Shown here: positions 1-23,324 of the stretch, in pieces
How positions within the stretch are numbered: position 1 is the stretch's first letter
Layout of the letters: every line of letters starts with the position of its first letter
From: Myxococcota bacterium
Lineage (GTDB): Bacteria > Myxococcota_A > UBA796 > GCA-2862545
Direction of reading: 5' to 3'
Length of the DNA stretch: 23,324 nucleotides
NCBI GenBank assembly: GCA_039208735.1
Contig: JBCCQY010000149.1
Location: forward strand, 1-23,324
Position numbers and translations under genes: made by a program
The notes under the pieces: generated by a model
Told to the model about the DNA's origin: nothing
The model's database searches: none
Seen by the model: only the letters and a program-made list of their open reading frames with translations

Positions 1-115
1 ATGTCATCGGCAATGACGCCAATCGAGCCGCCGTAGCGAATGACTTCTGTTAGGGCAGAGGTATTTAGAATCTCTTTAAAGCAGCAGGCTTCAGTCTCGT
101 TCACGGGCGGTAGCT
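1..115 (-). pseudogene. Internal fragment of a RecD2/Dda-like SF1 helicase, foreign to the downstream DNA
   Basis: The minus strand reads open as LPPVNETEACCFKEILNTSALTEVIRYGGSIGVIADD. LPPV resembles SF1 helicase motif III (GDxxQLPPV) and LTEVIR resembles motif IV. Bases 1-100 are 49% GC by hand count, well below the following genes. Not in the ORF track. Confidence 0.6.
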
Positions 116-1875: not shown

Positions 1876-1882
1876 GGACGAC

Positions 1883-3046
1883 ATGACTCGCTTCCTGTTC
1901 GCGGCCCTTGCCGCCTGTGGTTCAGAGCCGGAGCCTGTCGCCCCTGTGGCGGCGGAAGCCCCGGAGGTCGAGGAGAAGGCCTACGAGCCCTACGTGGCCG
2001 GTCCGGCCGAGGTTCAGTACGGCGTCTGTGTGCAGTGCCACGGCCTGCATGGCGAGGGGCGTCCCGAACTCGGCGCCCCCCGCATCGGTCAGCTCGATGC
2101 GGAGTACGTGACCGCCCAGCTGCGATCGTTCCGCGCCGGAACGCGCGGCTACGACCCTGAGGACGAGAGCGGCCAGGCCATGCGCGCCGTCGCAGCCGGT
2201 CTACCCGACGAAGCGATCGAGCTTCTGGGACCGTTCGTCGAGGACCTCGACCCGGCGCCGCAAGCCCCCACGGCCAAGGTCTCGGGCGGTGCCGCAGCCT
2301 ACGGCGTCTGCTCCTCTTGCCACGGCCCCGACGGCCTAGGCAACGAGGCGCTACAAGCACCGGCTCTCGCCCAGCAGCATCCGGCCTACCTCACGCGGCA
2401 GCTCCGCCACTACCGCGATGGCGGGCGGGGGGGCCCCCAGGGGGCTCCCCTCGGCATGACGATGGCCGCACAGGCCACCGGGCTTTCCGACGACCGTATC
2501 GAACGACTCGTGGCCCACATCGGCTCGCTGCGCGAGGAGCCGCCACCCCTCGAGAACCCGCCCGTGACGCGGTCGCGCGACGAAGGACTCGCCGCCTTCG
2601 CCGACATCTACGCGGTCGCCACGCATCCCCGGTGCATGAACTGCCACCCCGACGGCGATGCACCGATGCAGGGCGACGACAGCCATGCGCACATCTACGG
2701 CATCACCCGGTTCAGCCCCCTCGAGGGCACGCACTGCAGCACCTGCCACGCCCCCAAGGCGGTGGGCGACGGTCAGGTGCCGCTCCCGCCCGCCGATGCG
2801 GTGTGGAGCATGCCTCCCCAGGCCATGGCCTTCCAGAACCGGACGCAGGGCGAGCTATGCAACCAGCTCAAGAACCCGGCGACCAACGGCGGTCGCGGCC
2901 TCGGTGACCTCGCGGAGCACATCGAACACGACCACCTGCTGGTCACGAGCTGGCATTCCGGCCGTGAGACGCCGCCCATCACGCACGCCGAGCTGGTTGA
3001 GCGCTACGAGATCTGGGCTGAGGCGGGCGGGCCGTGTCCGGAGTGA
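1883..3046 (+). CDS. Four-haem c-type cytochrome lipoprotein (c4-like dihaem domain plus an IorAB-associated dihaem domain)
   Basis: GAGGA RBS then ATG 1883; lipobox LAA-C. CxxCH motifs: CVQCH 2027-2041, CSSCH 2309-2323, CMNCH 2633-2647, CSTCH 2735-2749. The first two haems have c4-style 'P.L..Q...Y...QL..F/YR.G.R' segments and distal Met candidates. Confidence 0.88.
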   Translation: MTRFLFAALAACGSEPEPVAPVAAEAPEVEEKAYEPYVAGPAEVQYGVCVQCHGLHGEGRPELGAPRIGQLDAEYVTAQLRSFRAGTRGYDPEDESGQAMRAVAAGLPDEAIELLGPFVEDLDPAPQAPTAKVSGGAAAYGVCSSCHGPDGLGNEALQAPALAQQHPAYLTRQLRHYRDGGRGGPQGAPLGMTMAAQATGLSDDRIERLVAHIGSLREEPPPLENPPVTRSRDEGLAAFADIYAVATHPRCMNCHPDGDAPMQGDDSHAHIYGITRFSPLEGTHCSTCHAPKAVGDGQVPLPPADAVWSMPPQAMAFQNRTQGELCNQLKNPATNGGRGLGDLAEHIEHDHLLVTSWHSGRETPPITHAELVERYEIWAEAGGPCPE

Positions 3047-5709: not shown

Positions 5710-5955
5710 ATGAGGAACACCAGCATCACGCTGGGCGAGCACTTCGAAGGCTACGTGAAGTCCCTTGTGGAGTCCGGTACCTTTCGCTCGGTGAGCGAGG
5801 TCGTCCGGGACGCGCTTCGGCTACACGAGGGGCACCGTGAGCGGAACGAAGCCCTTCGAGCGGCGATCCACGAAGGTCTGGAAGGACCCTTCCGAAAGAG
5901 GACTGCGGACGACTTCAAACGGGCGGGGCGACGCCTCGCTCGTGAAGATGATTGA
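5710..5955 (+). CDS. parD: Type II TA antitoxin, ParD (CC2985-like ribbon-helix-helix)
   Basis: MRNTSITLGEHFEGYVKSLVESGTFRSVSEVVRDALRL...EALRAAIHEGL; GGAGG RBS; overlaps the toxin gene. Confidence 0.92.
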   Translation: MRNTSITLGEHFEGYVKSLVESGTFRSVSEVVRDALRLHEGHRERNEALRAAIHEGLEGPFRKRTADDFKRAGRRLAREDD

Positions 5956-6238
5956 GGCCAGATACTCCGCCGCAGCGGAAGGCGATGTTGCGCGGGCCTG
6001 GCTTGCCTGTCGCAACCGGTGGGTCGAAGAACAGGCTGATCGATACATCGACATGCTTCACGCCGCGGTCGAGCAACTCTGCCTCTTCCCCGAGAGTGGC
6101 AACGACCGTACGGAACTCGTTCCTGGGCTTTGTTCCAGGGTCATGAAGACGCACGTTATCTTCTACCGCCTCGTCAGCGAAACCCTGCAAGTGGTTCGTG
6201 TGCTGCATGTACACCAGGATCCCACCGAACACGTCTGA
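5948..6238 (+). CDS. parE: Type II TA toxin, RelE/ParE family
   Basis: YSAAAEGDV...W.EEQADRYI..L...FPESG...HVIFYR...LQVVRVLHVHQD. Start is ATG 5948 or GTG 5942, overlapping parD. Confidence 0.9.
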   Translation: MIEARYSAAAEGDVARAWLACRNRWVEEQADRYIDMLHAAVEQLCLFPESGNDRTELVPGLCSRVMKTHVIFYRLVSETLQVVRVLHVHQDPTEHV

Positions 6239-7846: not shown

Positions 7847-9787
7847 CTACTCCACGGGGTCGATGTAGGAGACGACGTCGCCGAACAGATCGACTTCGGT
7901 CGGATGGGCCATCACAGCGTCGCCAATCGCATTGGCGAGCTCCAGGAGCCCGTCCGTCGTGTTGAGGGTCGTGGTGATGACCACGTCGACCCCGTCGATC
8001 TCGGGAAGATCGCCGGTCCTCGGGTAGGCGACGTACCGAGCAATCTGGGCCGAGGTGGCGGATTCTACGCGTAGTCCGTTGTGGCTCGCCCGGTAGGCGC
8101 TGCACTCGTCGTTCACGCAAGCCAGCTGCCATCCGAGCCCCCGGTTGCGGAAGCTCTCGAACATCGGTCGCTCCATGGTCACCCGGCTCGCACCGGAGAT
8201 GACGTCGACCCGGTTCGGGTAGCCGTCCATCGCCGCCAGGATCTTGGCGAAGTCGACGGCGGACAGCCGCATCGAGCCCGCCGAGCTTCCGGCGTGGTTG
8301 GTGGGGGTCCACGGCACCTGCACGAGCTCGCCGTCCGAGTCGAACCTGTTGCCCTTTGCGTCGATGGCCTGGATCAGCTCGAGCCCGTTGAACGAAACTC
8401 CACCCGCATCCGCCGGTGCGAACAGCTCGACGAGCCGCTCGGACCAGTCCTGTCCGGTCATCTCCCCCACGATGGTTCCTACGAGGCCCATGCCGTGGTT
8501 CGAGTAGCTGGTGGCGCTGCCCGGAGTGAACAGCAGCGGCCGGGTGCTGAGCACCCACTGATTGGTGATCGTGCCGGGGACTGGGGCGAAGTCCGCGTCG
8601 AAATCGTCGTAGCCGTACTTGATCGCGGCCTGTGCGGGCGTACCGCTGCCCGTCAGTCCCGAGGTGTGCGTCAGCAGATGTCGCATCTCGATCGCCTCAT
8701 AAGCGTCGATCCACTGGCGACGGGACCCTGGCATGTCGGGACGCTGGTAGTCGAGCGTGGCATTGATCGAGCCGAGGTTGTTGGTGAGACCTTTGCTCGC
8801 AGTCTCATCGCTGTAATAGGCGGTGTTGATGCCGTTTGGCGACCGCGCGATGCCGGTGATGTCGTAGCGGCGGTCCTCGGAGCCGGGCACCACGAAGTCG
8901 CGAGCCTCGCCATCCCAGCCGTCTCGGAGTCGATCGGCGGTGGGCCCCGAAGTGACGCGGCCATCGTGGTAGAACGCGTAGAAGATCTCGGTGTTCGGAT
9001 CACACACGATGCCGACAATCCAGTCGGAGTTTCGAGAGTCGTAGGCGGGCTCATTCACCCCCGACGTGAACGACACCGCGGTCAGGTCCTCGATTGTCCC
9101 TACCCCGAGACTGCCGTCCCGGTACCAGCTGTAGACGTCTTCGTCGCATTGTGCGATGGCGACGACGTCGAGGGGTGAGCGAAACGCCGGCAGTTCATAG
9201 GGCAACGGACTCTGATAGAAGTCGAGGTCTCCGCTGGTGCCGCGCGTGTACGTGCCATCTCGGTACCAGGTGATCACCTCACCGAGCGAGCCGATTCCGA
9301 CGTCGATCATCGGATGGTACCGCCGTACGCCCTGAGTGTACGCCCCCGTGAACGTCGGATCATTCGAAAACGGAGGGACGGTCAGCAAGTCTCCGTAGAC
9401 GAGGGACTCGACCGACGCATTGGAGATCTCGGTCTGCCGCATGTAGACAGCCGAGATCACCACCTTGGTCGTGCTTCCCACATGGATCCGCGTGTACGGT
9501 TGCATCGTGGTGCCCACGTCGCGGTCCGCCAGGCCGTAGGCTCCGCTGTAGACGAGACGGCCCTCGTGCGTCGCTGCGACCTGCATCCCGGGGTAGCCCA
9601 CCTCGTCCATCAGCTCCTCGACGAGTCCGTCGATGGCGTCGCCGAGGCCCTCGGCCTGCACGAACTCTTGGGGAGGGCCTTCCTCGTCGGTCGGCGGAAC
9701 CGCCACGAGCGACGGGTCACAGCGGTCACCCGTGCAGCAACCCGCTACCATGATGCTTGTGCAGCCGATGATGAACCACGTTCGCAT
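7847..9787 (-). CDS. Serine hydrolase (beta-lactamase/PBP family) lipoprotein with an inserted repeat domain
   Basis: GGAGG RBS then MRTWFIIGCTSIMVAG-C. SxxK (GSTTK), LLTHTSG, YxN (YSNHG) and HNG motifs. About 200 aa are inserted between SxxK and LLTHTSG. Confidence 0.88.
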   Translation of the reverse strand: MRTWFIIGCTSIMVAGCCTGDRCDPSLVAVPPTDEEGPPQEFVQAEGLGDAIDGLVEELMDEVGYPGMQVAATHEGRLVYSGAYGLADRDVGTTMQPYTRIHVGSTTKVVISAVYMRQTEISNASVESLVYGDLLTVPPFSNDPTFTGAYTQGVRRYHPMIDVGIGSLGEVITWYRDGTYTRGTSGDLDFYQSPLPYELPAFRSPLDVVAIAQCDEDVYSWYRDGSLGVGTIEDLTAVSFTSGVNEPAYDSRNSDWIVGIVCDPNTEIFYAFYHDGRVTSGPTADRLRDGWDGEARDFVVPGSEDRRYDITGIARSPNGINTAYYSDETASKGLTNNLGSINATLDYQRPDMPGSRRQWIDAYEAIEMRHLLTHTSGLTGSGTPAQAAIKYGYDDFDADFAPVPGTITNQWVLSTRPLLFTPGSATSYSNHGMGLVGTIVGEMTGQDWSERLVELFAPADAGGVSFNGLELIQAIDAKGNRFDSDGELVQVPWTPTNHAGSSAGSMRLSAVDFAKILAAMDGYPNRVDVISGASRVTMERPMFESFRNRGLGWQLACVNDECSAYRASHNGLRVESATSAQIARYVAYPRTGDLPEIDGVDVVITTTLNTTDGLLELANAIGDAVMAHPTEVDLFGDVVSYIDPVE

Positions 9788-10003
9788 GCCTTCGTCCTCC
9801 GGAGGTTGGATGGGCAGGTTCTGCGCAGCGGTCGACCGCGTTCGAGCGGGCGCTAGCGTCGAATCCTCATAGGAGGCACACGGTCTCACTTGGGTCCCAA
9901 CTCGCACCAGTACGGGACTGACACCGCGACGACCGCGATCAGGCCGGCCAGAGCCGCTCGATCGAGTACGCTACGTGGAGTGCTCGACAACGGTGACGAC
10001 GCG

Positions 10004-12913
10004 ATGTCCAACTTCGAAGATCTTCGACAGCTTCAACTCGACGTCGGCACGCTCGATCTCGTCTCGGGGACCTTCCAGCGATCCGAGGGCCCCCTTACGC
10101 TCACCCCGGTCGAGACCGCCTTGCTTCGCTACCTCGTTGCGCGACCGGGCGAGGCCGTCGCTCGCGACGAACTGTACGCCGAGGTGTGGGGATTCGTGCC
10201 GCAGGCGCTCAGTCGAGCCGTCGACAAGGCCGTTCGAAGGCTTCGCGTGAAGATCGAACGGGATCCTTCGCGCCCTCGGCACCTCCTGACCGCCCACGGG
10301 GTGGGGTACCGGTTCGCGACGGCTGGACTGAATCCCGCGCCGCCGCTTCCATCGTCCGAGTTGCAGGAAGAGGTGGCGGCCATCGGAAGCCGTCGCGTCG
10401 ATTTGGCCAGAGGAACCGTCGATGGGCCATCGGGGCGTGAGTACCTCACCGCCGTCGAGGTAGGGCTGGTGCGTGCACTGCACCACGCGAAGGGACGAGT
10501 GGTCGAGCGCTCGACGCTCAAGCGCGCCGGATGGACCGGAGGCGCTTCCGATCGGGCACTCACCAACGCGATGCACCGCCTTCGGTCCAAGCTCGGCCAA
10601 GATGCCTTGCGTACCACCCGAGGCTCCGGGTACCAGCTGGTCACCGGGTCGCCCCCATACCCGACGCCCACCCTGACCGAGCCGAGCTCACCGCTCTTCG
10701 GTCGCGAGCCGGAGCTCGCGGCCATCCTCGACCGCCTCGACGACGGAGCGCACCTGGTCAGTCTGGTGGGGGCCGCGGGTATCGGAAAGACGCGGCTGGC
10801 GGTTCGCGCTGCCTCGATGACGGCGGATCGGTTCTGCGGAGGCGTCTGGCTCGCCGACCTCACACAAGCCACCGACGAAGACGACGTCATCCGCTTGTTG
10901 ACCCAGGATCTCCAGGTGCCAGACGGCACCCGAGATGCGTTGGTCCGCACCCTGAAGCTTCGGGGGGCTTCGCTCGTGGTCGTCGACAGCTTCGAAGGGG
11001 TGGTCGACCACGCCGCGAGTACAGTTGGCTACTGTCTGCGCGAGGCGCCGGAGTCCGTATTCGTCGTGACCTCGCGGGAGCGCCTCCGGATTCGGGAGGA
11101 GTCCGTCCTGCAGATCGGCCCCCTACCCAAGCCCGACGCGATCGCCCTGTTCGAGTCCCGGGTGTGTCAAGCCGGCGCGATGGTCCGGGCCTCGGACCAT
11201 CTCGCGATCGAAAGCATCGTCGAGCAGCTGGATGGGATCCCGCTCGCGCTGGAACTGGCGGCGGCTCGCTCCCCCCAGCTCGGAATTCGACAAGTCGAGG
11301 CGATGCTCTCCGACCGGTTTGCGTTGCTCGTCGGAGGACCGCGAGACGCCCCTCCGCGGCATGCGATGTGGCACGCCGCGCTCGCCTCGTCCTGGCGACT
11401 CCTGGACTTCACAGAGCAACAGCTGATGACCGAGCTCTCGGTGTTCGTGGGCGGGTTCGACCGAGCCGCGGCGGAGGCCGTGGCCACGGTGTCCGACGTG
11501 ACGGAGAAGCTGACGAGCCTCGTCGACAAGTCGCTGATTCAGCTCTCGTCCGACGGTGGGCGCTACTCCCTCTTTGCGTCGGTCCGACTGTATGCCGCAC
11601 AGTTCCTATCGAACGAAGCGATCCGCAAACGACACGCGACGTACTACGCATCGCTGGGCAGCGAGGAAACCCAGCGTTTGCGGGGCCGCCCCGGGGAGAT
11701 CGAGCGACTCGAGCGCATGAAACTCGAACGAGAGAACCTTCGCACCGCGTTCGACTTCGCAAGGGCCGCCGGACTTCCCAGGGTCGCCGTCGAGTCCGCA
11801 ATGGCCCTGGCCAAGCTCGGTTGGGAGTTCGGGCCGATCCCGCCAGAGCTCGCGCGCTGCAACGAGCTAATCGACGCCTTTGGCGAGAGCCTGCCCACGC
11901 GATTGCTTGCCCGCTTGGTGTACGTGAAGTCCTATCTGGCAATCCGAACGGGTCGGAACGCCCAGGCCATCGAGGCCGCTACCCAGGCCCGGATGATCGC
12001 CGAGTCGCTCGGCGCCACATGGATCGCCCAGGCAGCCACCATCGTCCTGTCTGGGGCCTACCGCCAGGTGGGTGAACTCGACCGGGCCCGAGAGGAGGCG
12101 CTCGTCGGCCAGTCTTTAGCCGAGCAGGAAGGCGAGCTGTTCTTGCTTGGCCGCTCGCTCCATGCGCTCGAACGGTGGTCTCGCGTCGTCGGCGACTTTC
12201 AACAGGCGGTGGCCCTGGGCGAACGGATGCTCCAGATCGGTCGCGACACCGGAGATCTGCTGGGTGAGCTCGTCGCGCTCTCGGTTCTCGGAACATCGCA
12301 CTCCGAGCTTCTCAACGTCGAGATGGCCCGCTTCTACTACGAGCGTGCGCTGGAGCTGTGCAAGATCACCCGGAGTCCGACGCTCGAAGCACCGCTTCGG
12401 AACCTCCTCGGCATCTGGTTCGCAGACCGTGGCGCAGGTGCCGAAGCACGGCGCGAGTTCGGTATCTGTCTCGACCTCTCGAAGCTCGCCGGAGACGAGC
12501 GAGTGTACGGCCCCGTCACCCTGAACATCGCGACGATCGCGGTCACCGAGGACCAGCTGGTGGAGGCACGGTACTTCATCGAGCAAGCGCAGACCGTGGC
12601 GATGCGTTCGGGAGCGCGCCGCCTTCTCTTGCGGGCACGCATCTTGCTGGCCGAAGTCAGCCGACGCGGAGGCGACCTCGATGCGGCAAGGCGGCAGCTA
12701 GACGTGGTTCTCGCGGACCCCTACTGCCAACGAACTCCCCATCTGTCCGCGCAGGCCGAGAGTCAGGCAGGACTGTTGGCGCTGGACGAACAGGAGGCCT
12801 CCAAGGCCGAGCGTTGCCTCCACTCCGCGGAGAAGGCCCTTGCCTCGTTCAAGCTACGACGGCCGAGCCAACGACGCACCGTCGACGAGTTGGCCCGACG
12901 ACTGCGCGGGTAG
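10004..12913 (+). CDS. STAND-type regulator: two OmpR-like winged-helix domains, NB-ARC-like ATPase and TPR repeats
   Basis: wHTH1 'LTPVETALLRYL...RLRVKIE.DPSRPRHLLTAHGVGYRF'; wHTH2 'LTAVE..L...HRLRSKLG...TTRGSGYQL'; Walker A GAAGIGKT; Walker B VVVDSFE; TSRE; LDGIPLALELAAAR; helical TPR-like C-terminus. Confidence 0.9.
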   Translation: MSNFEDLRQLQLDVGTLDLVSGTFQRSEGPLTLTPVETALLRYLVARPGEAVARDELYAEVWGFVPQALSRAVDKAVRRLRVKIERDPSRPRHLLTAHGVGYRFATAGLNPAPPLPSSELQEEVAAIGSRRVDLARGTVDGPSGREYLTAVEVGLVRALHHAKGRVVERSTLKRAGWTGGASDRALTNAMHRLRSKLGQDALRTTRGSGYQLVTGSPPYPTPTLTEPSSPLFGREPELAAILDRLDDGAHLVSLVGAAGIGKTRLAVRAASMTADRFCGGVWLADLTQATDEDDVIRLLTQDLQVPDGTRDALVRTLKLRGASLVVVDSFEGVVDHAASTVGYCLREAPESVFVVTSRERLRIREESVLQIGPLPKPDAIALFESRVCQAGAMVRASDHLAIESIVEQLDGIPLALELAAARSPQLGIRQVEAMLSDRFALLVGGPRDAPPRHAMWHAALASSWRLLDFTEQQLMTELSVFVGGFDRAAAEAVATVSDVTEKLTSLVDKSLIQLSSDGGRYSLFASVRLYAAQFLSNEAIRKRHATYYASLGSEETQRLRGRPGEIERLERMKLERENLRTAFDFARAAGLPRVAVESAMALAKLGWEFGPIPPELARCNELIDAFGESLPTRLLARLVYVKSYLAIRTGRNAQAIEAATQARMIAESLGATWIAQAATIVLSGAYRQVGELDRAREEALVGQSLAEQEGELFLLGRSLHALERWSRVVGDFQQAVALGERMLQIGRDTGDLLGELVALSVLGTSHSELLNVEMARFYYERALELCKITRSPTLEAPLRNLLGIWFADRGAGAEARREFGICLDLSKLAGDERVYGPVTLNIATIAVTEDQLVEARYFIEQAQTVAMRSGARRLLLRARILLAEVSRRGGDLDAARRQLDVVLADPYCQRTPHLSAQAESQAGLLALDEQEASKAERCLHSAEKALASFKLRRPSQRRTVDELARRLRG

Positions 12914-14956: not shown

Positions 14957-15592
14957 CTATCGGACCGCGATGACACTCCCCGAATCGTCTGGATCCTCCG
15001 GGCGTCGGACCAGGGCAAACCCCGACCGATGACGGGCCTGCGCGCGTATTGCCCCAGGCGCCACCCACGCTTCACCGAGCCGCCATCCTTGTTCGGTCGC
15101 CTGCTGAACGCCGCGGGCGCGCACCCAGACGGGTGGATCACCAGGGAGCAGCCGCCAAGGCCCATCGAGCGGCTGCCCCTGTCGGCTGAATCGCAGCGCA
15201 CCCGACGTTGGAACGAACCGTGCTGCCGCGGTGCGTCGGCCGATCTCGCTCTCTTCGACGACCCAGTAATCATGGGGATGATCCGAGCCGGTTCGAGGCG
15301 TGATGGTGACCGTTTCGGCGAGGCTCTCCCAGTCTCCGGTCGGGTCGAAGCCTGCCAGCAGCCGTCGGTCTAATTCCACCGAGAAGGCTAAGGCAACCTC
15401 GGGTTTCCCCTCGGCCATTGCATCATGGATGCTCTCATACAGCGCATCATCCGATGCTGAACGATCCGTGGACTCGCGATAGCGCTGGCGAATCGACGCG
15501 ATCCATGCGCCTTCGGCAAACGCCTGCTCGATGGCCCAGTCGAGCGCCACGGCCTCGTGCATCATGAATAAGGTTCGGAACGCCTCAAACAC
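14957..15592 (-). CDS. Hypothetical protein
   Basis: 211-aa ORF with GGAGGG RBS before GTG, collinear with the neighbouring minus-strand genes; no motif recognised. Confidence 0.65.
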   Translation of the reverse strand: MFEAFRTLFMMHEAVALDWAIEQAFAEGAWIASIRQRYRESTDRSASDDALYESIHDAMAEGKPEVALAFSVELDRRLLAGFDPTGDWESLAETVTITPRTGSDHPHDYWVVEESEIGRRTAAARFVPTSGALRFSRQGQPLDGPWRLLPGDPPVWVRARGVQQATEQGWRLGEAWVAPGAIRAQARHRSGFALVRRPEDPDDSGSVIAVR

Positions 15593-15661
15593 GCCGCCCT
15601 CCGCTTGCGAAGGATGTGCACGTCCCCGCGGCCGTCAACCACGGGCTCCGCTTGCCGCCGA

Positions 15662-16075
15662 TCACACAGCTCCGTCGAGGGTTCCTGTGTCGACGCCACC
15701 CGAACAGACCATCGATTCTCCAGACCAATCGTCTTCGACCACCGCAACCTCGTCCCCATGACGGACGAACAAGGTCTGGCCTTCCGGCAACGAAGGCATA
15801 GGGCAGGTGGCCGTGTCGACGTTGCAGTCCGCTACGATGTCGCGGCTCGCGAAGAGACCTCCTGGCGTTCGCACCCGGTACAGACTGTCGATCCGGTAAC
15901 GACCGTCGCCCTCTTCGATGACTTCGCAACTCGCCTGGGTGACGTCGAGCGACGAGCTTCGGCACGTAGAAAGGACGACCGTCACCTCGACGGGGGTGCC
16001 GCCGATGCAGAAACCACCTGCATTACGTTGCGTCTCGACGCATGCCATGAGCAACACGAGCCACGTGAAGCGCAC
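15662..16075 (-). CDS. Cys-rich hypothetical lipoprotein
   Basis: GGGAGG RBS then GTG: MRFTWLVLLMA-C; six further Cys in about 125 aa. Confidence 0.75.
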   Translation of the reverse strand: MRFTWLVLLMACVETQRNAGGFCIGGTPVEVTVVLSTCRSSSLDVTQASCEVIEEGDGRYRIDSLYRVRTPGGLFASRDIVADCNVDTATCPMPSLPEGQTLFVRHGDEVAVVEDDWSGESMVCSGGVDTGTLDGAV

Positions 16076-16173
16076 GATGACCTCCCACTTTCGGCGACTA
16101 AGCCTAGATCGAATGGGGGTGCCTGAACAAATGCCTTGCCATTCGCGGGCGTTGTTCGCGATATGTGCGCGCC

Positions 16174-17070
16174 ATGTTGACCTGGTGGCTACTTGCGCTT
16201 GCGGGATGCACAAGGGTGCTCGACCTTGACGCCGAGGACGAGCCCGCCACGTGCGTGCCGGTCGAGACTCCTGAGTTCCGTCTGCCAAGCGTACGCTGGG
16301 GCTTGGCTACGCTTTACGCCTCGCGACGACTAAGCGAGCGGACCGATGCCGTGCCGCAGCTTCGACCCGCATGGTTCCTCGCTTCTGCATGGCAAGCCAC
16401 CGGCTTCGGGTGTGCGGCATACCGAGACCCGTTTGCTGGCGTCAACAATCGACTGGACCGAGACGAAGGGTGTTTGGGCATTCGCCGCGACAAGGTCTGG
16501 AATGAGATCTGCGTGCTGTACCCTTCGATCTTCCCCTGCGATGCTTACCCGGGAACCCTCGCTGGCGACACCCCGGAGGCGAGCGCGCTGACGCTTGCAT
16601 GGTATGCCGTGGCCGCGCACGCCCTCCTGGGGCGATTCGAGGTCGACCCGAACGTGTTCTATGACGAAGCTACCGATCCACGCGCCGCAGCCGAACTTTC
16701 GGCGGCTCTGCACGTGGCGGGTCCCGACCTCAATTCGGCAGGCATCGAACTCAGCGGGTGCGAAGAGGACGTCGCGGCCTGTCTAGACGGTGAGGTCCGG
16801 GACCATGTCCTTGGGGTCACCGAGAAGCTGGATGCGCTGGATGCGGCGGACTGCATCGACATTGACGTTCCAAACGAGGAGCTTTCGGGGTTCATCGACG
16901 GGCTGGCCAGCCGGATTCCCGACTTCGATGCCGATGATGCACTTTCGGCGGCGCAGGCCGCGGAACCGACCTTGAGTGCTGTGGTGGCCGCCGTCGAGCA
17001 GGCGTCCCCCGTGTCGTTGATCTGCCCCGAAGCGGAGCTGAAGCGTTGGTACGGCTTGTCCTGTCCCTAG
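16174..17070 (+). CDS. Cys-rich lipoprotein, possibly a degenerate lysozyme-like fold
   Basis: MLTWWLLALAG-C lipobox; many Cys; acidic. The fold guess rests only on 'PAWFLASAWQATGF...DEGCLGI'. Confidence 0.75.
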   Translation: MLTWWLLALAGCTRVLDLDAEDEPATCVPVETPEFRLPSVRWGLATLYASRRLSERTDAVPQLRPAWFLASAWQATGFGCAAYRDPFAGVNNRLDRDEGCLGIRRDKVWNEICVLYPSIFPCDAYPGTLAGDTPEASALTLAWYAVAAHALLGRFEVDPNVFYDEATDPRAAAELSAALHVAGPDLNSAGIELSGCEEDVAACLDGEVRDHVLGVTEKLDALDAADCIDIDVPNEELSGFIDGLASRIPDFDADDALSAAQAAEPTLSAVVAAVEQASPVSLICPEAELKRWYGLSCP

Positions 17071-17831
17071 TTGACTTCCTTGGGGTCCCCATCGAAGACC
17101 GACTCCAACAAGAGCTGCAGCTTGCGGATGTCGACGTCACGATGGTGGAGGCCGAAGGATTCGCGGTGGCCTCATTGGAAGATCGGTTGGCATTGCTTCG
17201 CGAGCGCGAGGTGGCGTCGCCCGCCGCGTGGATCACGCTCAAAGAAGACACCGTGCAGGTTTCGCTGGCCACGTTCGATTCGGACCGCGCGAATGTCAGG
17301 CTTGTCGCAGTTCCCAGCGGGCCGGATGCCCCCGCCGAACTCGCACTGGGCATTCGCGAGATCCTGACGCAGCTGGCCCCCCCACCCTTGGCCGGCCCGG
17401 AGCCCCGCTCGAGTCTCCATGCGAGCGTCGGGCTCGGAGCCGTCGTTCCCACGCAAGGGCTTGCCCTCGGTCCTCGGTTGTTGTTGCAGGCCGAAGGGAC
17501 CTGGTCGCTTGGTTCGCCGGCCTCGATCGGTGGGATGCTCGCGGTTCAACTGGGACGAGATCAATGGCGAGTGGGACTCGGCGCGGTGGGTCGGTACGGT
17601 CCTGGGCTTGTTGCGGCCCGGCTTGATGTGGCCCGACTGCCCTGGGTGACCTGGCTTCAACCTCGCTTGGACATCGGTGCAACGATCACGCTGAGCCGCT
17701 TCTGGGCGGAGCCTCGCCTCTCGTGGGCCCCGCAACGCGACATCGTCCAACAACGCACGGGTCGGATTTACGACTCCGGACGCATTGAATTCGTGATTGC
17801 GATCGGCTTGCGACAGATGCCTGCCCGTTGA
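17046..17831 (+). CDS. Hypothetical protein, putative outer-membrane protein (N-terminal domain, Pro linker, beta-strand-rich C-terminus)
   Basis: Fills the gap between the lipoprotein and the sigma factor; PPPLAGPEP linker followed by Gly-rich amphipathic strands. The TTG start is uncertain. Confidence 0.7.
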   Translation: MVRLVLSLVDFLGVPIEDRLQQELQLADVDVTMVEAEGFAVASLEDRLALLREREVASPAAWITLKEDTVQVSLATFDSDRANVRLVAVPSGPDAPAELALGIREILTQLAPPPLAGPEPRSSLHASVGLGAVVPTQGLALGPRLLLQAEGTWSLGSPASIGGMLAVQLGRDQWRVGLGAVGRYGPGLVAARLDVARLPWVTWLQPRLDIGATITLSRFWAEPRLSWAPQRDIVQQRTGRIYDSGRIEFVIAIGLRQMPAR

Positions 17832-17835
17832 CGAC

Positions 17836-18417
17836 ATGTCGGGTGTGATTGCCACCGACGTCGATGCCGGTCTTGTGAACCGCCTGCTGCTTGGAGACCA
17901 GGATGCCCTGGGTGCGCTGTACCTGCGATACGGCGCGTCGGTCCGAAGCTTCTTGGCTCGGGTGGTGCCTGCGCTGTCCAATGAGGACATCGACGATCTC
18001 TGCCAGGAGACGTTCATGACCTTCGCCGACGGCGTTCAGCGCTACCAGCACATCGGTCGACTGCGCAGTTGGCTGTTCGGTATCGCCATTCGCAAGGCCC
18101 GCGCCGCGGTGCGACGGCGGCGATGGCGTCGGGCAGTGGGACTTCGGAGCGGCCCGCCAGCGGCCGGCGTCGCCTTAGGGCAACCCCGCGCGGATGACCG
18201 GGTCGATGCTCGGCGTCGGATCGGTCAGCTGATGGCGGACCTTCCAGACCCACAACGAGAGGTGCTGGTACTCACGGCCATGGAGGGCCTCTCGGTGAAA
18301 GAGGCGGCGGCCGTGTTGGGAATTCGAGAAAACGCAGCGTCCGCACGACTGTACCGGGCGCGCAAGGCCATGGCCGCGCTTGACGCAGAGGCCACGCGCA
18401 CGCCGGAGGCCTCATGA
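17836..18417 (+). CDS. ECF RNA polymerase sigma-70 factor
   Basis: Region 2 'DIDDLCQETFM...LRSWLFGIA'; region 4 'LPDPQREVLVLTAMEGLSVKEAAAVLGI...SARLYRAR'. Confidence 0.95.
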   Translation: MSGVIATDVDAGLVNRLLLGDQDALGALYLRYGASVRSFLARVVPALSNEDIDDLCQETFMTFADGVQRYQHIGRLRSWLFGIAIRKARAAVRRRRWRRAVGLRSGPPAAGVALGQPRADDRVDARRRIGQLMADLPDPQREVLVLTAMEGLSVKEAAAVLGIRENAASARLYRARKAMAALDAEATRTPEAS

Positions 18418-19421
18418 ACGAAGACGAACTCCAGGCGTGGGCCCATGCGCAGCGGCAACCTCGGCCCTCTCCCCAAGATGCGTCCGGCTTGGTGAACCGA
18501 TGGCAACGCCGGACCCGACGTCGCTTCGTGACCCGCACGGGATTTGGACTTGCGCTGGCCGCCGCCGTCGTGGCCTTCGTATTGACGAACGCCCCCGATC
18601 CCGTCGTGGCGCCGGTTCCCGAGGTGGTGACCGCAGCGCCCATTCAGCTTGCGCCAGGCCTGCATGAAACCAATGGCGACGCCATTGACGTTGCCGACAA
18701 CAGTTCCGTCACGGTGCTCGCACCCGGACGGTTTGTGCTCACCTCGGGCACCGTCGCCATTGAAGCCCGCTCTCGTCCGAAGACCGCGCCCCTAACGGTC
18801 CAGGCGGGCGATGTGACGGTGACCGTGGTGGGCACCCGGTTCATCGTGACGCTCGATCCGCTTCGCGTCGAGGTGACGGAGGGGGTGGTGGCGGTGGAAC
18901 AGGGGGGAGCGCGCCACCTTGTTCGAGCGGGAGAGGTCTTTCCTCCGCTCGACGATGTTCCACCAGCCCCCCTTCCGCCCCTCGACGCTTTGCGGAACCA
19001 GATCGTGAGCGGAAACCTGGACTCCGCGCGTCTAGGGCTTCGCTATCGCCTCGCCACCGACCCGACCGATGCCGATACCTGGGTCGTACTGGCCCAGCTC
19101 GAGGGGCAAGGCGGAAAGGTCGAGGCGGCCCGAACCGCCTGGCGCGCCGTCGTGGAGCATGGCCGCACGCGTCAAGCCCAGCGCGCACGATTCGAACTCG
19201 CTCGTTCGTTTGAAGACGAGCCGGAAAACGCCCTTGGTTGGCTCGAGGCGTACCTGGCCGATCCTGGGGTCCTCGCGCCCGAGGCTCGGCTTCGCCTGGG
19301 TTTAGCGCAGCGCCAACTGGGCCGACCAGAGGCTGAAAACACCCTTCGACAGGTGATTGTCGACCATCCCGGAACTGCAGCGGCCGCGAGAGCGCGTACG
19401 CTGCTCGGAGAACCTCGATGA
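18414..19421 (+). CDS. FecR-domain anti-sigma factor with C-terminal TPR-like repeats
   Basis: Short cytoplasmic N-terminus, one TM helix (GLALAAAVVAFVL), FecR motif 'VTVVGTRF.V...VEVTEGVVAV', and TPR-like 'EARLRLG...QVIVDHP'. ATGA-coupled to the sigma gene. Confidence 0.9.
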   Translation: MNEDELQAWAHAQRQPRPSPQDASGLVNRWQRRTRRRFVTRTGFGLALAAAVVAFVLTNAPDPVVAPVPEVVTAAPIQLAPGLHETNGDAIDVADNSSVTVLAPGRFVLTSGTVAIEARSRPKTAPLTVQAGDVTVTVVGTRFIVTLDPLRVEVTEGVVAVEQGGARHLVRAGEVFPPLDDVPPAPLPPLDALRNQIVSGNLDSARLGLRYRLATDPTDADTWVVLAQLEGQGGKVEAARTAWRAVVEHGRTRQAQRARFELARSFEDEPENALGWLEAYLADPGVLAPEARLRLGLAQRQLGRPEAENTLRQVIVDHPGTAAAARARTLLGEPR

Positions 19422-20650
19422 ACCGAAGACAGTTGCTCGAGTTCGGGTCCGCCTCGTTGCTGGCGGCACCGTTCGTGGACTTGCTGCGTCCGACGTCGTC
19501 GTTCGCCCAAGCGCGCGGAAAGGCCAAGCGCCTCGCCATCCTGTTCTCGCCGAATGGCACGATCCCCCATCGGTGGCAGCCGACGGGCTCGGGTCGAAAC
19601 TACTCGTTCGGCGATGGTTCGATCCTCGAACCGTTGCAGGGTCTCGAACAAGACCTGCTGGTGCTCGGGGGAATGGACTTCAACACCGGCAACAACCACG
19701 AGGGAGGCATGCGGAACATGCTCACCTGCGGTGGTGACATCAGCATTGACCAGGTGATTGCAGATCACATCGGTGGTGCAGCGCGCTTCGGCTCGCTCGA
19801 ACTCTCGGCTCAGACCTCGGCATGGGGCGGATCGAACCAGACCCGCATGTGCTACCGCGATGGCGGGTTCATCACCCCCGACGATGACCCGATTCACGCC
19901 TGGACGCGATTGTTCGGCGAGGTCGGAGACGCGGCCACCCAGGCGCGCCGTCAGTCGGTTCTCGATCTGGCATCGGACGAACTCAAGGCGCTGCATAAAC
20001 GCCTTGGCAAGGCCCAGCAGGCGCAGCTCGACACCCATCTCGAGGGCCTTCGGACCGTGGAACGGAGCCTCTTTGGCGGCGGTGACTGCGAGTCGCCGGT
20101 GGCGCCAGGGGTCGACGATCCCCAGAACAATGATGCCTTCCCTGCCGTGGCGGACGCCCAGATCGACCTGGCGGTCCAAGCCCTAGCCTGCGGCGTGACG
20201 CCGGTGGTCACGGTGCAGCTGTCCCACACGGTGAGTCCCGTGGTTTGCCGGTGGGTAAACGCGACGTCCGGTCACCATGAGCTTTCGCATGCCGATGACG
20301 GCAACACGGGTTCCGTCCAGAGCTTCGTGGACTGCGAGCAGTGGTTCGCAGGTCAGTTCCGCCGCCTGTGGGAGGGCCTCGATGCAGCGGTCGATCCCGA
20401 AACCGGTCGTCCGTTGCTCGATGACACCGTCGTACTGTGGGTGAAGGAACTCGGAGACAGCCGGGCCCACGTCTGTGAATCGGTGCCTTGGGTGCTTGCG
20501 GGACGAGGCGCCGGGTTTGAACTCGGTCGGTTCTTGGATGTCAACGGAGCGACCCACGATCGCGTGCTCACCTACGTCGCTCAGGCCTTTGGGCTGTCGC
20601 TGGGTTCGTTCGGTACGGGCACCCAGGGCCCGCTGGAGGTGTTGGGATGA
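19418..20650 (+). CDS. DUF1552 (HXXSHH) family protein with Tat-like signal
   Basis: MNRRQLL twin-Arg signal; 'KRLAILFSPNG', 'ILEPL', 'SIDQVIA', 'RRQSVLD', 'HHELSH', 'LLDDTVV..ELG..H' family motifs. Confidence 0.92.
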   Translation: MNRRQLLEFGSASLLAAPFVDLLRPTSSFAQARGKAKRLAILFSPNGTIPHRWQPTGSGRNYSFGDGSILEPLQGLEQDLLVLGGMDFNTGNNHEGGMRNMLTCGGDISIDQVIADHIGGAARFGSLELSAQTSAWGGSNQTRMCYRDGGFITPDDDPIHAWTRLFGEVGDAATQARRQSVLDLASDELKALHKRLGKAQQAQLDTHLEGLRTVERSLFGGGDCESPVAPGVDDPQNNDAFPAVADAQIDLAVQALACGVTPVVTVQLSHTVSPVVCRWVNATSGHHELSHADDGNTGSVQSFVDCEQWFAGQFRRLWEGLDAAVDPETGRPLLDDTVVLWVKELGDSRAHVCESVPWVLAGRGAGFELGRFLDVNGATHDRVLTYVAQAFGLSLGSFGTGTQGPLEVLG

Positions 20651-22371
20651 TCGCACTGTTCGCCTTGATCGGCTGTGGTGGTGGCGGCGGTAACGACGCC
20701 CCGACCTGTGGCGAAGAAGAACCTGCGGAACGGCTGCTTCGTCGGCTGACCCACGACGAGTATCGGCGGACCGTCGAGGACCTGACCGGGGTGACGGTCG
20801 ATGCCTCGCTCGCGTCCGACCCGACGGTCGAGAACTTCCGCAACGACGCCCATGCACTCGTGGTCAACGGCTTGCTGGCGGACCAGTACCGGACCGCGGC
20901 AGAATCCGTGGGGCAGGCCTACAACGTTGAGGGGAATCTGCCGTGCAACCCCACCGAAGACGGAGATGTGGCATGTGCGACCAGCTTCGTTGAGACGTTT
21001 GGGCTGCGCGCGTTCCGGCGCCCCTTGAATGACGACGACATCGAAGCATACGTGGGCTTATGGTCCGAAGTCGCCTCGGAGGATGGCTTTTCCGAGGGGG
21101 TTCGCTGGGTGGTGACGGCGATGCTTCAATCGCCGCACTTCCTCTACCGTTCCGAACTGGGTACGCGAGAGCGGAAGAAGGACCCCTTTGTGCTTTCCGA
21201 CTGGGAGATGGCCACCGCGCTGTCTTACCTGCTGTGGGGCACGATGCCCGATGCGACGCTGTTTGAAGCCGCAGCGGTGGGCCAGTTGCGCACCGATGAG
21301 CAGGTCGAAGCCCAAATCGACCGGATGATCGGAGACCCCCGAGCCGTCGAAACGGTGGCTGACTTCGTCGACGCCTGGCTCGATCTGGGGCAGCTGCAGA
21401 CGGTGGCGCGGGAAGGCCTGACCGATGACGCCCGCCAAACCATGGCCGACGAGACGCGAGCCCAGGTGGCGCAGTGGGTGGAAGAAGGTGGGACGTTGGC
21501 CTCGTTGTTGGCCGCGGAGGATGGGCTGTTGACGCAGGCCTCGGTGCTTACCACACATGCCCGTCCCGACGGCTCATCCCCGGTCCATCGGGGTGTGTTG
21601 ATTCGCGAACGCTTGCTCTGCGAGGAGCTTCCACCCCCTCCTCCGAACATCGACACGTCGCCGCCGCCGGTCGATCCCACCAAATCCACCCGCGATCGAT
21701 ACCGCGAGCACTCCGACAACCCCGATTGTTCGGGCTGCCACGTGCTCATCGATCCCCTAGGCTTCGCGTTCGAACACTACGATCAGCTTGGGCAATGGCG
21801 TGACGACGATGCGGGGCATCCCATCGATGACTCGGGCGCGCTCGACGGGGTCCCGTTCGAAGGACCCGAGGGCCTGGCGATGGCCTTGCTCGATGATCCC
21901 AGGTTCCGTGAGTGCTTTGTGTACAGCTGGCGACGCCATGCCAGGGGAACCCATGCGTGTGGCGATGACCGTGGCACGGATGTGCTCTTGATCCAGCCCC
22001 TGCTCGAAGTGCTTACGACGTACGGCTTTCGCCATCGAGACGGGGCTCGCAGTGAAAAGGACACCTTGGCCGTCGGAGATGGGGGGCCCGTCTCCGCTCC
22101 CAATGTGCCCGGGGCCGTAGGCGCCGTCGAATTCAGGATCGAAGTCAACAACGATTGGGGCGGTGGGTTCTGCGCGAACGGATCGGTTCACAACGACGGT
22201 CAGGAACCCGTGACGTGGAGCGGTCGCTACGCCATCGACGGCAGCATCAGCAGCATCTGGGATGCCGTCGTGGAGGAAGACGGGGCTAACTGGGTGTTCT
22301 CAGGCCGCGACAACAACGCGACCCTCGAGCCCGGTGAACGCACGCAGTTCGGCTTCTGCGCCCAACGGTAG
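20647..22371 (+). CDS. DUF1587/1595/1592/1588 (PSD/PSCyt) haem-binding lipoprotein with C-terminal CBM2
   Basis: Lipobox LIG-C; LRRLT..EY; FGLRAFRRPL; LQSPHFLYRSE; LSYLLWGTMPD; SPVHRG...LLC..LPPPP; CSGCH (21727-21741) followed by IDPLGFAFEHYD. C-terminal 'NDWGGGFCAN...W...IWDA...N..LEPG...FGFCA' matches CBM2 (about 22130-22368). Confidence 0.92.
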   Translation: MIALFALIGCGGGGGNDAPTCGEEEPAERLLRRLTHDEYRRTVEDLTGVTVDASLASDPTVENFRNDAHALVVNGLLADQYRTAAESVGQAYNVEGNLPCNPTEDGDVACATSFVETFGLRAFRRPLNDDDIEAYVGLWSEVASEDGFSEGVRWVVTAMLQSPHFLYRSELGTRERKKDPFVLSDWEMATALSYLLWGTMPDATLFEAAAVGQLRTDEQVEAQIDRMIGDPRAVETVADFVDAWLDLGQLQTVAREGLTDDARQTMADETRAQVAQWVEEGGTLASLLAAEDGLLTQASVLTTHARPDGSSPVHRGVLIRERLLCEELPPPPPNIDTSPPPVDPTKSTRDRYREHSDNPDCSGCHVLIDPLGFAFEHYDQLGQWRDDDAGHPIDDSGALDGVPFEGPEGLAMALLDDPRFRECFVYSWRRHARGTHACGDDRGTDVLLIQPLLEVLTTYGFRHRDGARSEKDTLAVGDGGPVSAPNVPGAVGAVEFRIEVNNDWGGGFCANGSVHNDGQEPVTWSGRYAIDGSISSIWDAVVEEDGANWVFSGRDNNATLEPGERTQFGFCAQR

Positions 22372-22374
22372 CGG

Positions 22375-22626
22375 TCACGAAAAGGAGGCTTGTCCAAGGC
22401 GTGTGGACCAACCATCGTCGTATTCAACGACGAGGTAGGTCCCGCTGCCATGCCGGACCAGCTTCCGACGCTTCTTGCCCTGTCCTGGGCCAAGCCATCC
22501 GCCATCGTCGACGATGACGTCAAGGTCGGCGCGGCTCCGGCAGGCCTGAAGGCTTGCAATCTCGGAGGCGTGATTTGCGGGATCGAGCGCATCGATCAAC
22601 GTTTTCAGGGCGTGGTCAAAGGCCAT
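22375..22626 (-). CDS. Small hypothetical protein (83 aa)
   Basis: The ATG overlaps the mgsA stop (TGATG), with GGAGGAG upstream; sequence [10 protein letters not shown]...LVVEYDDGWSTRLGQASFS. Confidence 0.7.
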   Translation of the reverse strand: MAFDHALKTLIDALDPANHASEIASLQACRSRADLDVIVDDGGWLGPGQGKKRRKLVRHGSGTYLVVEYDDGWSTRLGQASFS

Positions 22627-23081
22627 CACTCCTCCGGAGCTGAGAAGCGGTTGTTGTAGGACGAAAAATCTGGGATTTCGCGGGCGTATTCGTCCCCGAG
22701 AAACAACGGGGAGGAAATCAGAAAGTCGGCGGTGCTGCGATTGCAGGCCATCGGCACGTTCCAGACCACCGCAAGGCGAAGTAGCGCTTTGACATCCGGA
22801 TCGTGCGGCATCGGGGCCAGGGGATCCCAAAAGAAGATGACGAGGTCGATCTTGCCCTGCGCAATGAGGGCCCCCATCTCCTGGTCGCCGCCCAGCGGCC
22901 CGGAGTGCAGGCAATGAACGGGATGTTCAAGGGCATCTTCGAGCAACGTTCCGGTGGTTCCCGTTGCGATCAGGCGGTGTTGAACGAGGACCGAGCGGTT
23001 GTAGCGGCTCCATTCGATGAGCGCGGGCTTGCGGTGATCATGCGCAATGAGCGCGATGGTCCCACGTGGGGTCGTCGACAT
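22626..23081 (-). CDS. mgsA: Methylglyoxal synthase
   Basis: [42 protein letters not shown] signatures; GGAGG RBS before ATG 23081. Confidence 0.97.
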
Positions 23082-23190
23082 CGGGCCTCCCGACGTGAGC
23101 ATAGCGGGTGTGAGATTCACGCAATGGTTCGGCCTGGCTGGCGCAAGCCCGGTCTGCTAGCAACCCATGCGTATGCACAGGGAGGCGGCA

Positions 23191-23324
23191 ATGATCCGTT
23201 GGGTCGCGCTGTTCGGGGCCGGCATGTTGATGTCGGGCTGCTTCATCTCGGACCTGGTCAACGGCGGCAATGACCGCACCGACGAGGACCAGGACGACGA
23301 CGATGATGACGACGTCAACACGGG
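23191..23324 (+). CDS. Lipoprotein N-terminus, partial (runs off the window)
   Basis: GGAGG RBS, MIRWVALFGAGMLMSG-C, then an Asp-rich linker (DEDQDDDDDDD). Not in the ORF track. Confidence 0.75.
   Translation, partial: MIRWVALFGAGMLMSGCFISDLVNGGNDRTDEDQDDDDDDDVNT

Follow-up and report, generated by a model that had tools for sequence, protein, structure and literature searches.

A row of six same-strand genes was analysed at positions 16174-22371 (+) of a 23,324-nt stretch of Myxococcota DNA. This stretch, here called the window, corresponds to contig C149 of a genome (coded G000) of 9.4 Mb and 92.7% completeness. The first gene, g1 (16174-17070), encodes a predicted lipoprotein with the fold of chitinase 5XSV, and g2 (17046-17831) a protein composed of an alpha/beta domain and an 8-stranded barrel. 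The third gene, g3, encodes an extracytoplasmic function (ECF) sigma factor and is placed at 17845-18417, with an inferred GTG start in place of the ATG at 17836 of the first reading; g4 (18414-19421) encodes an anti-sigma factor that is FecR-like and carries tetratricopeptide repeats (TPR). The row ends with g5 (19418-20650), coding for a DUF1552 (HXXSHH) protein, and g6 (20647-22371), coding for a PSD3-PSD5-PSD4(DUF1592)-PSCyt3 lipoprotein with a family 2 carbohydrate-binding module (CBM2; PF00553, 22138-22362). All six open reading frames (ORFs) were confirmed and are intact, with normal GC content at third codon positions (GC3). Neighbouring genes are coupled by ATGA overlaps at 18414, 19418 and 20647, g1 and g2 overlap by 25 nt, and the gap between g2 and g3 would be 4 nt if g3 began at ATG 17836. 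A preliminary description of this DNA, which named such a row with three ATGA couplings and these domains, was borne out by the ORF list and Pfam. Within 15500-23324, no sigma-70 promoter site was found, and five terminators were found against 4.7 expected. As to the taxon, a g1 relative with 58% identity is labelled Myxococcota by its source, and the look-alike clusters in the Atlas are mostly from Myxococcota.

Relatives were sampled in 154 genomes of the order. Those of g1 were found in 17 genomes, and in eight of these, from 6 genera and 3 families, the six genes stand in the same order on one contig. The expected linkage is thus conserved in related genomes, and the conservation of gene order is not due to chance. 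Among the ordered loci, the contig ends within g6 in G066, CBM2 is missing from g6 in G128, and in G036 an in-frame TAG (at about 4488 of locus L046) splits g6 after the PSCyt3 domain, leaving CBM2 in the downstream piece. The locus is divided between contigs in G051 and G067, and its parts are dispersed in G062 and G041; g1-g4 (hereafter the cassette) occur without the DUF1552/DUF1592 pair in G117, G008 and G006, and only a g1 copy keeping the glutamate discussed below is present in G038 and G127. The gene upstream of g1 varies among relatives. Orthologues of g5 (E ≤1e-80) were found at 39 places in 35 of the 154 genomes: nine lie directly behind g4, 27 lack g4 and three are undecidable at contig ends. 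CBM2 was detected in 27 of the 32 scannable g6 proteins of relatives, linked or unlinked. Cassette and pair are therefore two modules, with the CBM2 fusion independent of their link. In the g5 tree the nine linked copies fall into one clade (support 0.99), interspersed with unlinked ones, and this pattern fits one joining and about eight losses.

A predicted ECF promoter was located at 17812-17838 (+), with the -35 box (GACAGATG) in the last codons of g2, a 14-nt spacer and the -10 box ACATG. The string ACAGAT first stood out upstream of cassette-type g5 genes, and the promoter matrix was trained on g5-upstream sites of other genomes. With this matrix the site at 17812-17838 scored 16.7 bits, the best value within 15501-22600; sites of at least 16 bits occur at 4.3e-6 per position in G000. 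The motif GA(C/A)AG(A/G)T-N-N13/14-(G/A)CA(T/A) was present in eight of 10 cassette-type g5 upstream regions (12.8-19.9 bits, leave-one-out), counts that come, like all motif counts given here, from related and not independent genomes. In the two regions without it (G000 and G036), g4 and g5 overlap. Among 26 unlinked g5 upstream regions, two reached at least 14 bits; the motif precedes an unlinked g5 in G062, which suggests control in trans. In 10 of 13 cassettes a second copy (16.7-20.3 bits) directly precedes the sigma gene, the other three carrying a GTAAG variant, and since this copy is intergenic in G117 and G128, it is not a coding artefact. Upstream of six further sigma genes of the g3 family, a G(A/T/G)AAGGT form was found in all six (background 3.9e-6). 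The -35 sequence varies together with the recognition helix of sigma region 4.2: A(A/V)S(T/A)RL occurs with GACAGAT, VW(T/V/I)RL with G(A/T/G)AAGG and KNAA(N/S)VRL with GTAAGTC.

The -10 box covers ATG 17836, and five orthologues start with GTG 6-7 nt past the box, where the alignments also begin. Translation of g3 is therefore more likely to start at GTG 17845, with one induced transcript over g3-g6; judged from the sequence, a sigma mRNA starting there would be leaderless. Taken together, the sigma factor very probably controls g3-g6. The preliminary description had tied the sigma factor to the DUF1552/DUF1592 pair within one self-contained unit. The shared promoter motif upholds the tie, but the unit is not self-contained, given that at 27 of 39 places the pair has no cassette, and that elsewhere the cassette accompanies chitinase genes of glycoside hydrolase (GH) family 18. 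Additional GACAGAT matches across the genomes were rejected as a regulon, as chance gives a few in 146 of the 154 genomes, and so were two other matches in G000, which are antisense within genes. In G036 (contig C166, L156) an arylsulfotransferase-family lipoprotein gene has a promoter-like match well placed in front of it, which may be due to chance. Upstream of g1, a motif search over 16 loci gave nothing in common.

The Pfam matches of g3 comprised ECF sigma r2 (7e-12) and r4_2 (2e-14); against NCBIfam only the general model TIGR02937 reached its cut-off, and no specific ECF model did. The g4 protein consists of a short N-terminal segment, a hydrophobic helix (39-57), a FecR domain (88-159; Pfam FecR, 1e-5, over cut-off) and a TPR part (about 200-320) whose matches were all under cut-off. 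No TonB-dependent receptor was found among the 20 window ORFs scanned, a result that concerns linked genes, as an unlinked receptor was not searched for. Of the seven FecR matches in G000, one is g4, and four of the remaining six stand behind an ECF sigma gene. In three of these four loci an unannotated gene with a C-terminus that looks barrel-like by eye precedes the sigma gene, and no TonB receptor was seen beside them. The preliminary description pointed out that the operon has no such receptor; this is not special, being described for ECF267 (PMC7826278) and shared by these three loci. Unannotated upstream genes and downstream lipoproteins, with no TonB receptor seen, were noted at the sigma/FecR loci L031 (5584-9621), L032 (3325-8365) and L034 (4262-9153) of G000. 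In G357 (contig C160, L240, 2137-7850) a barrel-sigma-FecR cassette has no g1, and a second promoter copy precedes a lipoprotein gene that is vWA-like by eye and has no Pfam match. In G006 (C92, L238) and G008 (C4, L239) a B12-binding radical SAM gene is followed by a paralogous sigma/FecR-TPR pair that has a promoter copy of its own but neither g1 nor g2. A metagenome scan with the sigma alignment returned 80 loci, of which 76 matched by sigma only and four also had g2 and/or g4; g1, g5 and g6 were found in none of the 80.

The g1 protein (298 amino acids) has a lipobox, LAGC with Cys12, as read by eye, and gave no match over cut-off in Pfam or NCBIfam. When a family profile built from g1 and 35 of its 49 relatives was compared with the PDB, 5XSV ('Chitinase') was matched at E 1.7e-8, the sole solved structure under E 0.1. 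The g1 model (predicted local distance difference test, pLDDT, 89.7) had 5XSV ranked first by Foldseek, and the two aligned over 267 residues with Z 18.6, a root-mean-square deviation of 3.8 and 14-16% identity. We take 5XSV, 5XSW and 5XSX to be ChiD of Thermococcus (Pyrococcus) chitonophagus, a GH23-like protein. Tc-ChiD is listed among characterised chitinases (PMC8615776). The general acid of lysozyme-fold enzymes is the Glu at which the central helix ends, and a hairpin Gln lies next to it (PMC2976769). The motifs KE(N/S), G.FQ and YNRG are common to 5XSV (as AAKEN in the first case) and to the g1 relatives that keep the Glu; g1 itself has Ala75 for the Glu, Gly102 for the hairpin Gln (GCLG) and HVAG for YNRG. 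The Ala75 codon lies at 16396-16398 (+) and aligns with the Glu of KES/KEN in 5XSV and the Glu-keeping relatives. It is very likely that g1 is a non-catalytic protein of the 5XSV type, and it is read here as a predicted dead enzyme and candidate sensor. For the glycan sensing proposed earlier, the 5XSV profile match and the structural alignment supply g1 as a specific candidate; the source of the substrate lead is g1 and the GH18 neighbours, not CBM2.

Among the g1 copies of known context, the Glu is absent in 16 of 16 cassette-linked copies and kept in seven of the eight others; the eighth, in G041, is Glu-less and divergent from a GH18 gene, and the sigma gene lies elsewhere in that genome. 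The full fold and the Cys pattern persist in the cassette copies despite the lost Glu. The split between Glu-less and Glu-keeping copies had a Shimodaira-Hasegawa-like approximate likelihood ratio (SH-aLRT) support of 98 in a quick tree of 57 rows and of 99 with 22 rows, although a long-branched Glu-keeping copy (G336, C126) lands on the other side in the 22-row tree. A search for longer or fused g1 forms (875-2495 amino acids) gave none among 7989 candidates, which is weak evidence, and a scan of named genomes with g1 gave one match, which is irrelevant.

Four of the seven Glu-keeping copies stand directly behind a GH18 gene (G038, G041, G462, G496), and a Glu-less copy lies beside a GH18 unit in G008, G041, G462 and G496. 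In all four genomes with a Glu-less copy beside GH18, the same promoter boxes as before the sigma gene precede the GH18 gene. In G008, GTAAGTC-N14-RCATG has two matches in 8.3 Mb, one before the sigma gene and one before GH18 (reversed control, one). The -35 octamers before the sigma gene and before GH18 are identical in G496 and in G041, where the two genes are on different contigs; in G462 the -10 box agrees and the -35 box does so partly. In G038, which has the GH18 gene and in which no such sigma gene was found, the motif is absent before GH18. The GH18 proteins of L057, L098 and L242, coupled to a Glu-keeping 5XSV-like gene, read DGLS(I/V)DWE, with Ser at the middle Asp, which is kept in G038. 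The cleanest of the loci for experiments is on contig C3 of G496 (L242, 835-7510), where two promoter copies accompany a row of GH18, a Glu-keeping copy, a Glu-less copy, barrel, sigma and FecR-TPR.

The g2 model (pLDDT 92.6) comprised an alpha/beta domain (4-110), a Pro-rich linker and an 8-stranded barrel of the OmpA/OprF type (124-257). The barrel matched OprF, OmpA and NspA with Z 15-16 (OprF 4RLC, 15.9), and the N-domain gave Z 8.2 to the TolB N-domain and up to Z 10.0 to ITPase-like folds. The strong first matches of the g2 profile in the order lie, in 14 of 14 cases, directly behind a Glu-less g1, and g2 paralogues were found outside any cassette in G008 (C8) and G006 (C208). A signal-like N-terminal segment was seen by eye in 10 of 13 g2 copies. 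On the basis of the model, g2 is a candidate outer-membrane transducer. Complex prediction of g1 with g2 and the periplasmic part of g4 scored 0.00 in two runs, which has no bearing either way.

As for the last two genes, g5 matched Pfam DUF1552 (3e-66), has a twin-arginine N-terminus and contains the invariant residues H94, D111, Q112, C224, C258, H291 and H351. Sequence searches gave no significant PDB match for the DUF1552 fold: the sulfatases 3B5Q and 5G2T were reached at E about 1, and the best PDB match, to a helical stretch in an oxidoreductase (E 0.004), was disbelieved; DUF1501 was an Atlas look-alike at 0.81. The g6 protein has a lipobox (LIGC, Cys10) and one CxxCH (361-365); PSD3, PSD5, PSD4(DUF1592) and PSCyt3 were over the Pfam cut-off and PSD2 under it, and a second CxxCH lies near the N-terminus in 16 of 23 relatives. 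Its C-terminal domain had been read as a CBM2, and Pfam (CBM_2, E 1.6e-11) and PDB sequence matches confirmed this. C509, C571, W504 and W538 are kept, and the domain is the only CBM2 found in G000. Its best PDB matches were 2RTT, ChiC (2.6e-5), and then 3NDY, endoglucanase D (7e-4), with little between them. CBM2 binds crystalline cellulose, chitin or xylan and is not known to bind peptidoglycan. Of the 11 DUF1552 matches in G000, 10 have a DUF1592-type gene as partner; the order here is DUF1552 then DUF1592 and is reversed in the other nine pairs. What speaks for the haem redox enzyme pair of the preliminary description is the CxxCH motif, the conserved His and Cys residues and the Tat-like signal; that claim went too far, and redox chemistry of g5 and g6 is offered here as a guess. 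CBM fusions of PSCyt proteins and a role in carbohydrate use were proposed earlier (He et al. 2017, PMC5615132), and a Cellvibrio CBM2-DUF1592 protein appears in one table row of a lignocellulose community proteome (PMC6004670). The use of cellulose has been connected with the CBM2-bearing CxxCH proteins Cbp2D and TERTU_3803, with an X132 domain that is left unexplained (PMC10916295, PMC12542752) and that we infer to be the PSD/PSCyt3 domain set of g6.

These results are best accommodated by a chitin-sensing, TonB-free switch (g1-g4) that took over the DUF1552/DUF1592-CBM2 pair as its output, a reading to which we give a probability of about 0.5. According to this reading, g1 and g2 would be made from a promoter upstream of g1, and the g1 lipoprotein would bind chains of beta-1,4-linked N-acetylglucosamine without cutting them. 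The periplasmic domain of g2 would relay the signal to the FecR-TPR protein in place of a TonB-dependent receptor, and the freed sigma factor would transcribe g3-g6 from 17812-17838 and so raise its own level. Among relatives, this switch would likely drive a GH18 gene, often followed by a Glu-keeping g1 paralogue; in this lineage its output would be a His/Cys-rich protein exported by Tat and a c-type haem lipoprotein anchored by CBM2, the two being predicted to act jointly on the polysaccharide surface. That g1 is a sensor whose ligand in this organism is chitin or its fragments is, for us, an even call, and that the pair attacks chitin is a tentative proposal at best. It is rather doubtful, moreover, that a duplicated chitinase with one dead copy became the receptor of a TonB-free, two-membrane chitin relay whose output switched in one lineage from hydrolytic chitinases to the pair, with the pair providing a so far unrecognised haem-dependent attack on chitin in bacteria without a GH18 or GH19 chitinase or a lytic polysaccharide monooxygenase.

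Several observations weigh against the chitin switch. The catalytic role of the 5XSV Glu is our assumption, drawn from superfamily motifs; in several Glu-less copies the residue just before this place is a Glu, where the g1 of the window has Gln. Members of the sigma family occur without g1 in G357 (barrel present) and in second copies in G006 and G008 (neither g1 nor barrel). The G(A/T/G)AAG-type promoter pattern was written after the sites had been seen. No signal peptide was recognised by eye in g2 of G000, G036 and G053 (three of 13), and the third surface Trp of CBM2, present in 15 of 22 aligned CBM2-bearing copies, is Asn here. In G000, GH19, AA10, GH20, GH5 and CBM5/12 were not found, and one GH9 gene and one weak GH18 match, with NIDFE for the full motif, were. 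Strong GH18 matches occur in 23 of the 154 genomes, but among the 10 genomes carrying the six-gene or split locus only G036 and G011 have one. The motif is absent upstream of both genes, and the G036 protein lacks DxDxE. Among the motif-bearing GH18 proteins, three of four have Ser at the middle Asp of DxxDxDxE. The weak GH18-like gene of G000 lies at 13858-14748 of contig C181 (L103), and similarly weak matches occur in most genomes of the order. Across the five operon genomes tested, GH20, AA10 and CBM5/12 were found in none, GH9 in one and GH5 in two. Two possibilities follow: the pair may itself be the output directed at chitin, or this lineage may have switched to another ligand.

Such a changed ligand could be peptidoglycan, of prey or of the cell itself, sensed by g1 in the same wiring, with the pair answering cell-wall material. 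After 5XSV, the folds nearest to the g1 model are those of the lytic transglycosylases MltE, MltC and Slt (Z 9-11; MltE, the next best, Z 11.3 over 160 residues), ahead of the Ralstonia GH23 chitinase (Z 8.8), and the Atlas look-alikes are clusters of SLT-domain proteins (0.90-0.93). The g1 copies linked to the pair have diverged furthest from the Glu-keeping copies, G000 has no convincing chitinase, and many Myxococcota are predators. We nevertheless regard peptidoglycan as an unlikely ligand: the 5XSV alignment extends into the C-terminal part of g1, which the transglycosylases do not cover, members of the g1 family lie beside GH18 genes, and CBM2 is not known for peptidoglycan. It appears less probable still that the sigma factor controls the pair while g1 is an accessory lipoprotein, the barrel and FecR-TPR answering some other envelope cue. 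The g1-less members of the sigma family would suit this arrangement, as would the other sigma/FecR loci of G000 with unrelated upstream genes and the region before g1, where the motif scores 2.4 bits in the window. Against it stand the position of g2 directly behind a Glu-less g1 in 14 of 14 cases and the fact that all cassette copies are without the Glu yet retain the full fold and the Cys pattern; a modular sensor would, besides, be expected to have an upstream protein that can be swapped.

Cellulose or another plant glucan as the target, with CBM2 anchoring a haem protein of the kind seen in Cellvibrio and g1 shifted to glucan, was judged improbable. The Cellvibrio protein and Cbp2D and TERTU_3803 cited above point that way, as do the GH9 gene of G000 and the endoglucanase CBM as second-best PDB match of the CBM2, but the motif before that GH9 gene reached only 5.9 bits, GH9 and GH5 are sparse among the operon genomes, and the context of the g1 family is GH18. 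The least credible alternative is a cassette decaying in this lineage, its linkage a leftover and the pair working alone: the closest g5 relative (G038, 79% identical, with the same downstream mgsA) has no cassette, the interspersed unlinked g5 copies imply repeated loss, g2 lacks a signal peptide here and the G036 g6 is split, but the six ORFs are intact with normal GC3, the promoter is kept, and g4 and g5 are directly coupled in G000 and G036.

Other features of the window were recorded as follows. A small Cys-containing lipoprotein-like ORF (15662-16081, -) is divergent from g1 across about 90 bp, and methylglyoxal synthase (mgsA; 22626-23081, -) is convergent on g6, the same neighbour standing behind g6 in G038. 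Farther upstream lie a molybdopterin oxidoreductase subunit with a multihaem c-type cytochrome behind it (40-3046, +), and a small ORF followed by a ParE-family gene (5710-6238, +), likely a ParDE toxin-antitoxin pair. A beta-lactamase-family lipoprotein with a long insert (7847-9706) is divergent from a regulator with two winged-helix domains, NB-ARC and TPRs (9980-12913, +).

DUF1552/DUF1592 pairs are abundant, and the literature found gives them neither substrate nor regulator; the locus offers a candidate inducer (chitin), a promoter and a minimal pair. It also brings to light bacterial kin of the archaeal chitinase 5XSV, a family in which Glu-keeping and Glu-less paralogues are paired and which lies outside Pfam and NCBIfam; it suggests a signal source for FecR-TPR anti-sigma factors without a TonB receptor, and would add a two-membrane bacterium to the clostridia as users of dead hydrolases for polysaccharide sensing. 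A literature search that did not cover most subscription journals returned no paper joining chitin or chitinase with an ECF sigma/anti-sigma pair or FecR in myxobacteria. Two of the elements are already known separately, the TonB-free FecR-TPR protein from ECF267 and the nearly dead hydrolase as sensor from RsgI6.

ECF267 comprises myxobacterial ECF sigma factors, from Sorangium and Chondromyces, with a TPR-fused FecR-like anti-sigma factor at +1; a FecA-like or TonB-dependent transporter is missing, protein kinases lie in the vicinity and the promoter is not conserved (PMC7826278). The locus resembles it in the FecR-TPR anti-sigma factor at +1 and the missing TonB receptor, and differs in that the promoter is conserved here and none of the six genes encodes a kinase; no protein kinase was found among the 20 window ORFs, the neighbourhoods of relatives having been scanned in part. 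The likeness is one of description, and the available part of the ECF267 description names no barrel, dead hydrolase or target (PMC7826278). With the FecI/FecR/FecA system, the locus shares an ECF sigma factor and a single-helix anti-sigma factor with a FecR domain (PMC7826278), whereas here an 8-stranded barrel with an alpha/beta N-domain adjoins in place of a TonB receptor and the FecR protein carries TPRs. In Bacteroides, Dma1/Das1 links an 8-stranded outer-membrane barrel to ECF control (PMC10927553); in Dma1 (ECF21) barrel and anti-sigma factor form one chain, whereas g2 and g4 are separate genes in 13 of 13 cassettes aligned, with a FecR-TPR domain in between. Compared with the 5XSV chitinase, g1 has the fold over 267 residues and Glu-keeping relatives that share the three motifs of 5XSV, but is a 298-residue predicted lipoprotein without the Glu, the Gln and YNRG, encoded in a signalling operon. 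The g6 protein has the Pfam domain set of PSCyt3/PSD proteins and lies next to DUF1552; the DUF1552-first order, the C-terminal CBM2 and the predicted regulator and inducer set the present pair apart from those described. In the SigI6/RsgI6 system of Clostridium thermocellum, a near-inactive glycoside hydrolase domain binds polysaccharide and senses for an autoregulated sigma factor that turns on hydrolase genes (PMC4711584). RsgI6 is one chain of GH10 and anti-sigma factor serving a sigma-I factor in a Gram-positive cell, whereas here the proposed sensor is a separate lipoprotein of another fold in a cell with two membranes. By analogy, the system may work like RsgI6 placed in an ECF267-like chassis, with a barrel that recalls Dma1.

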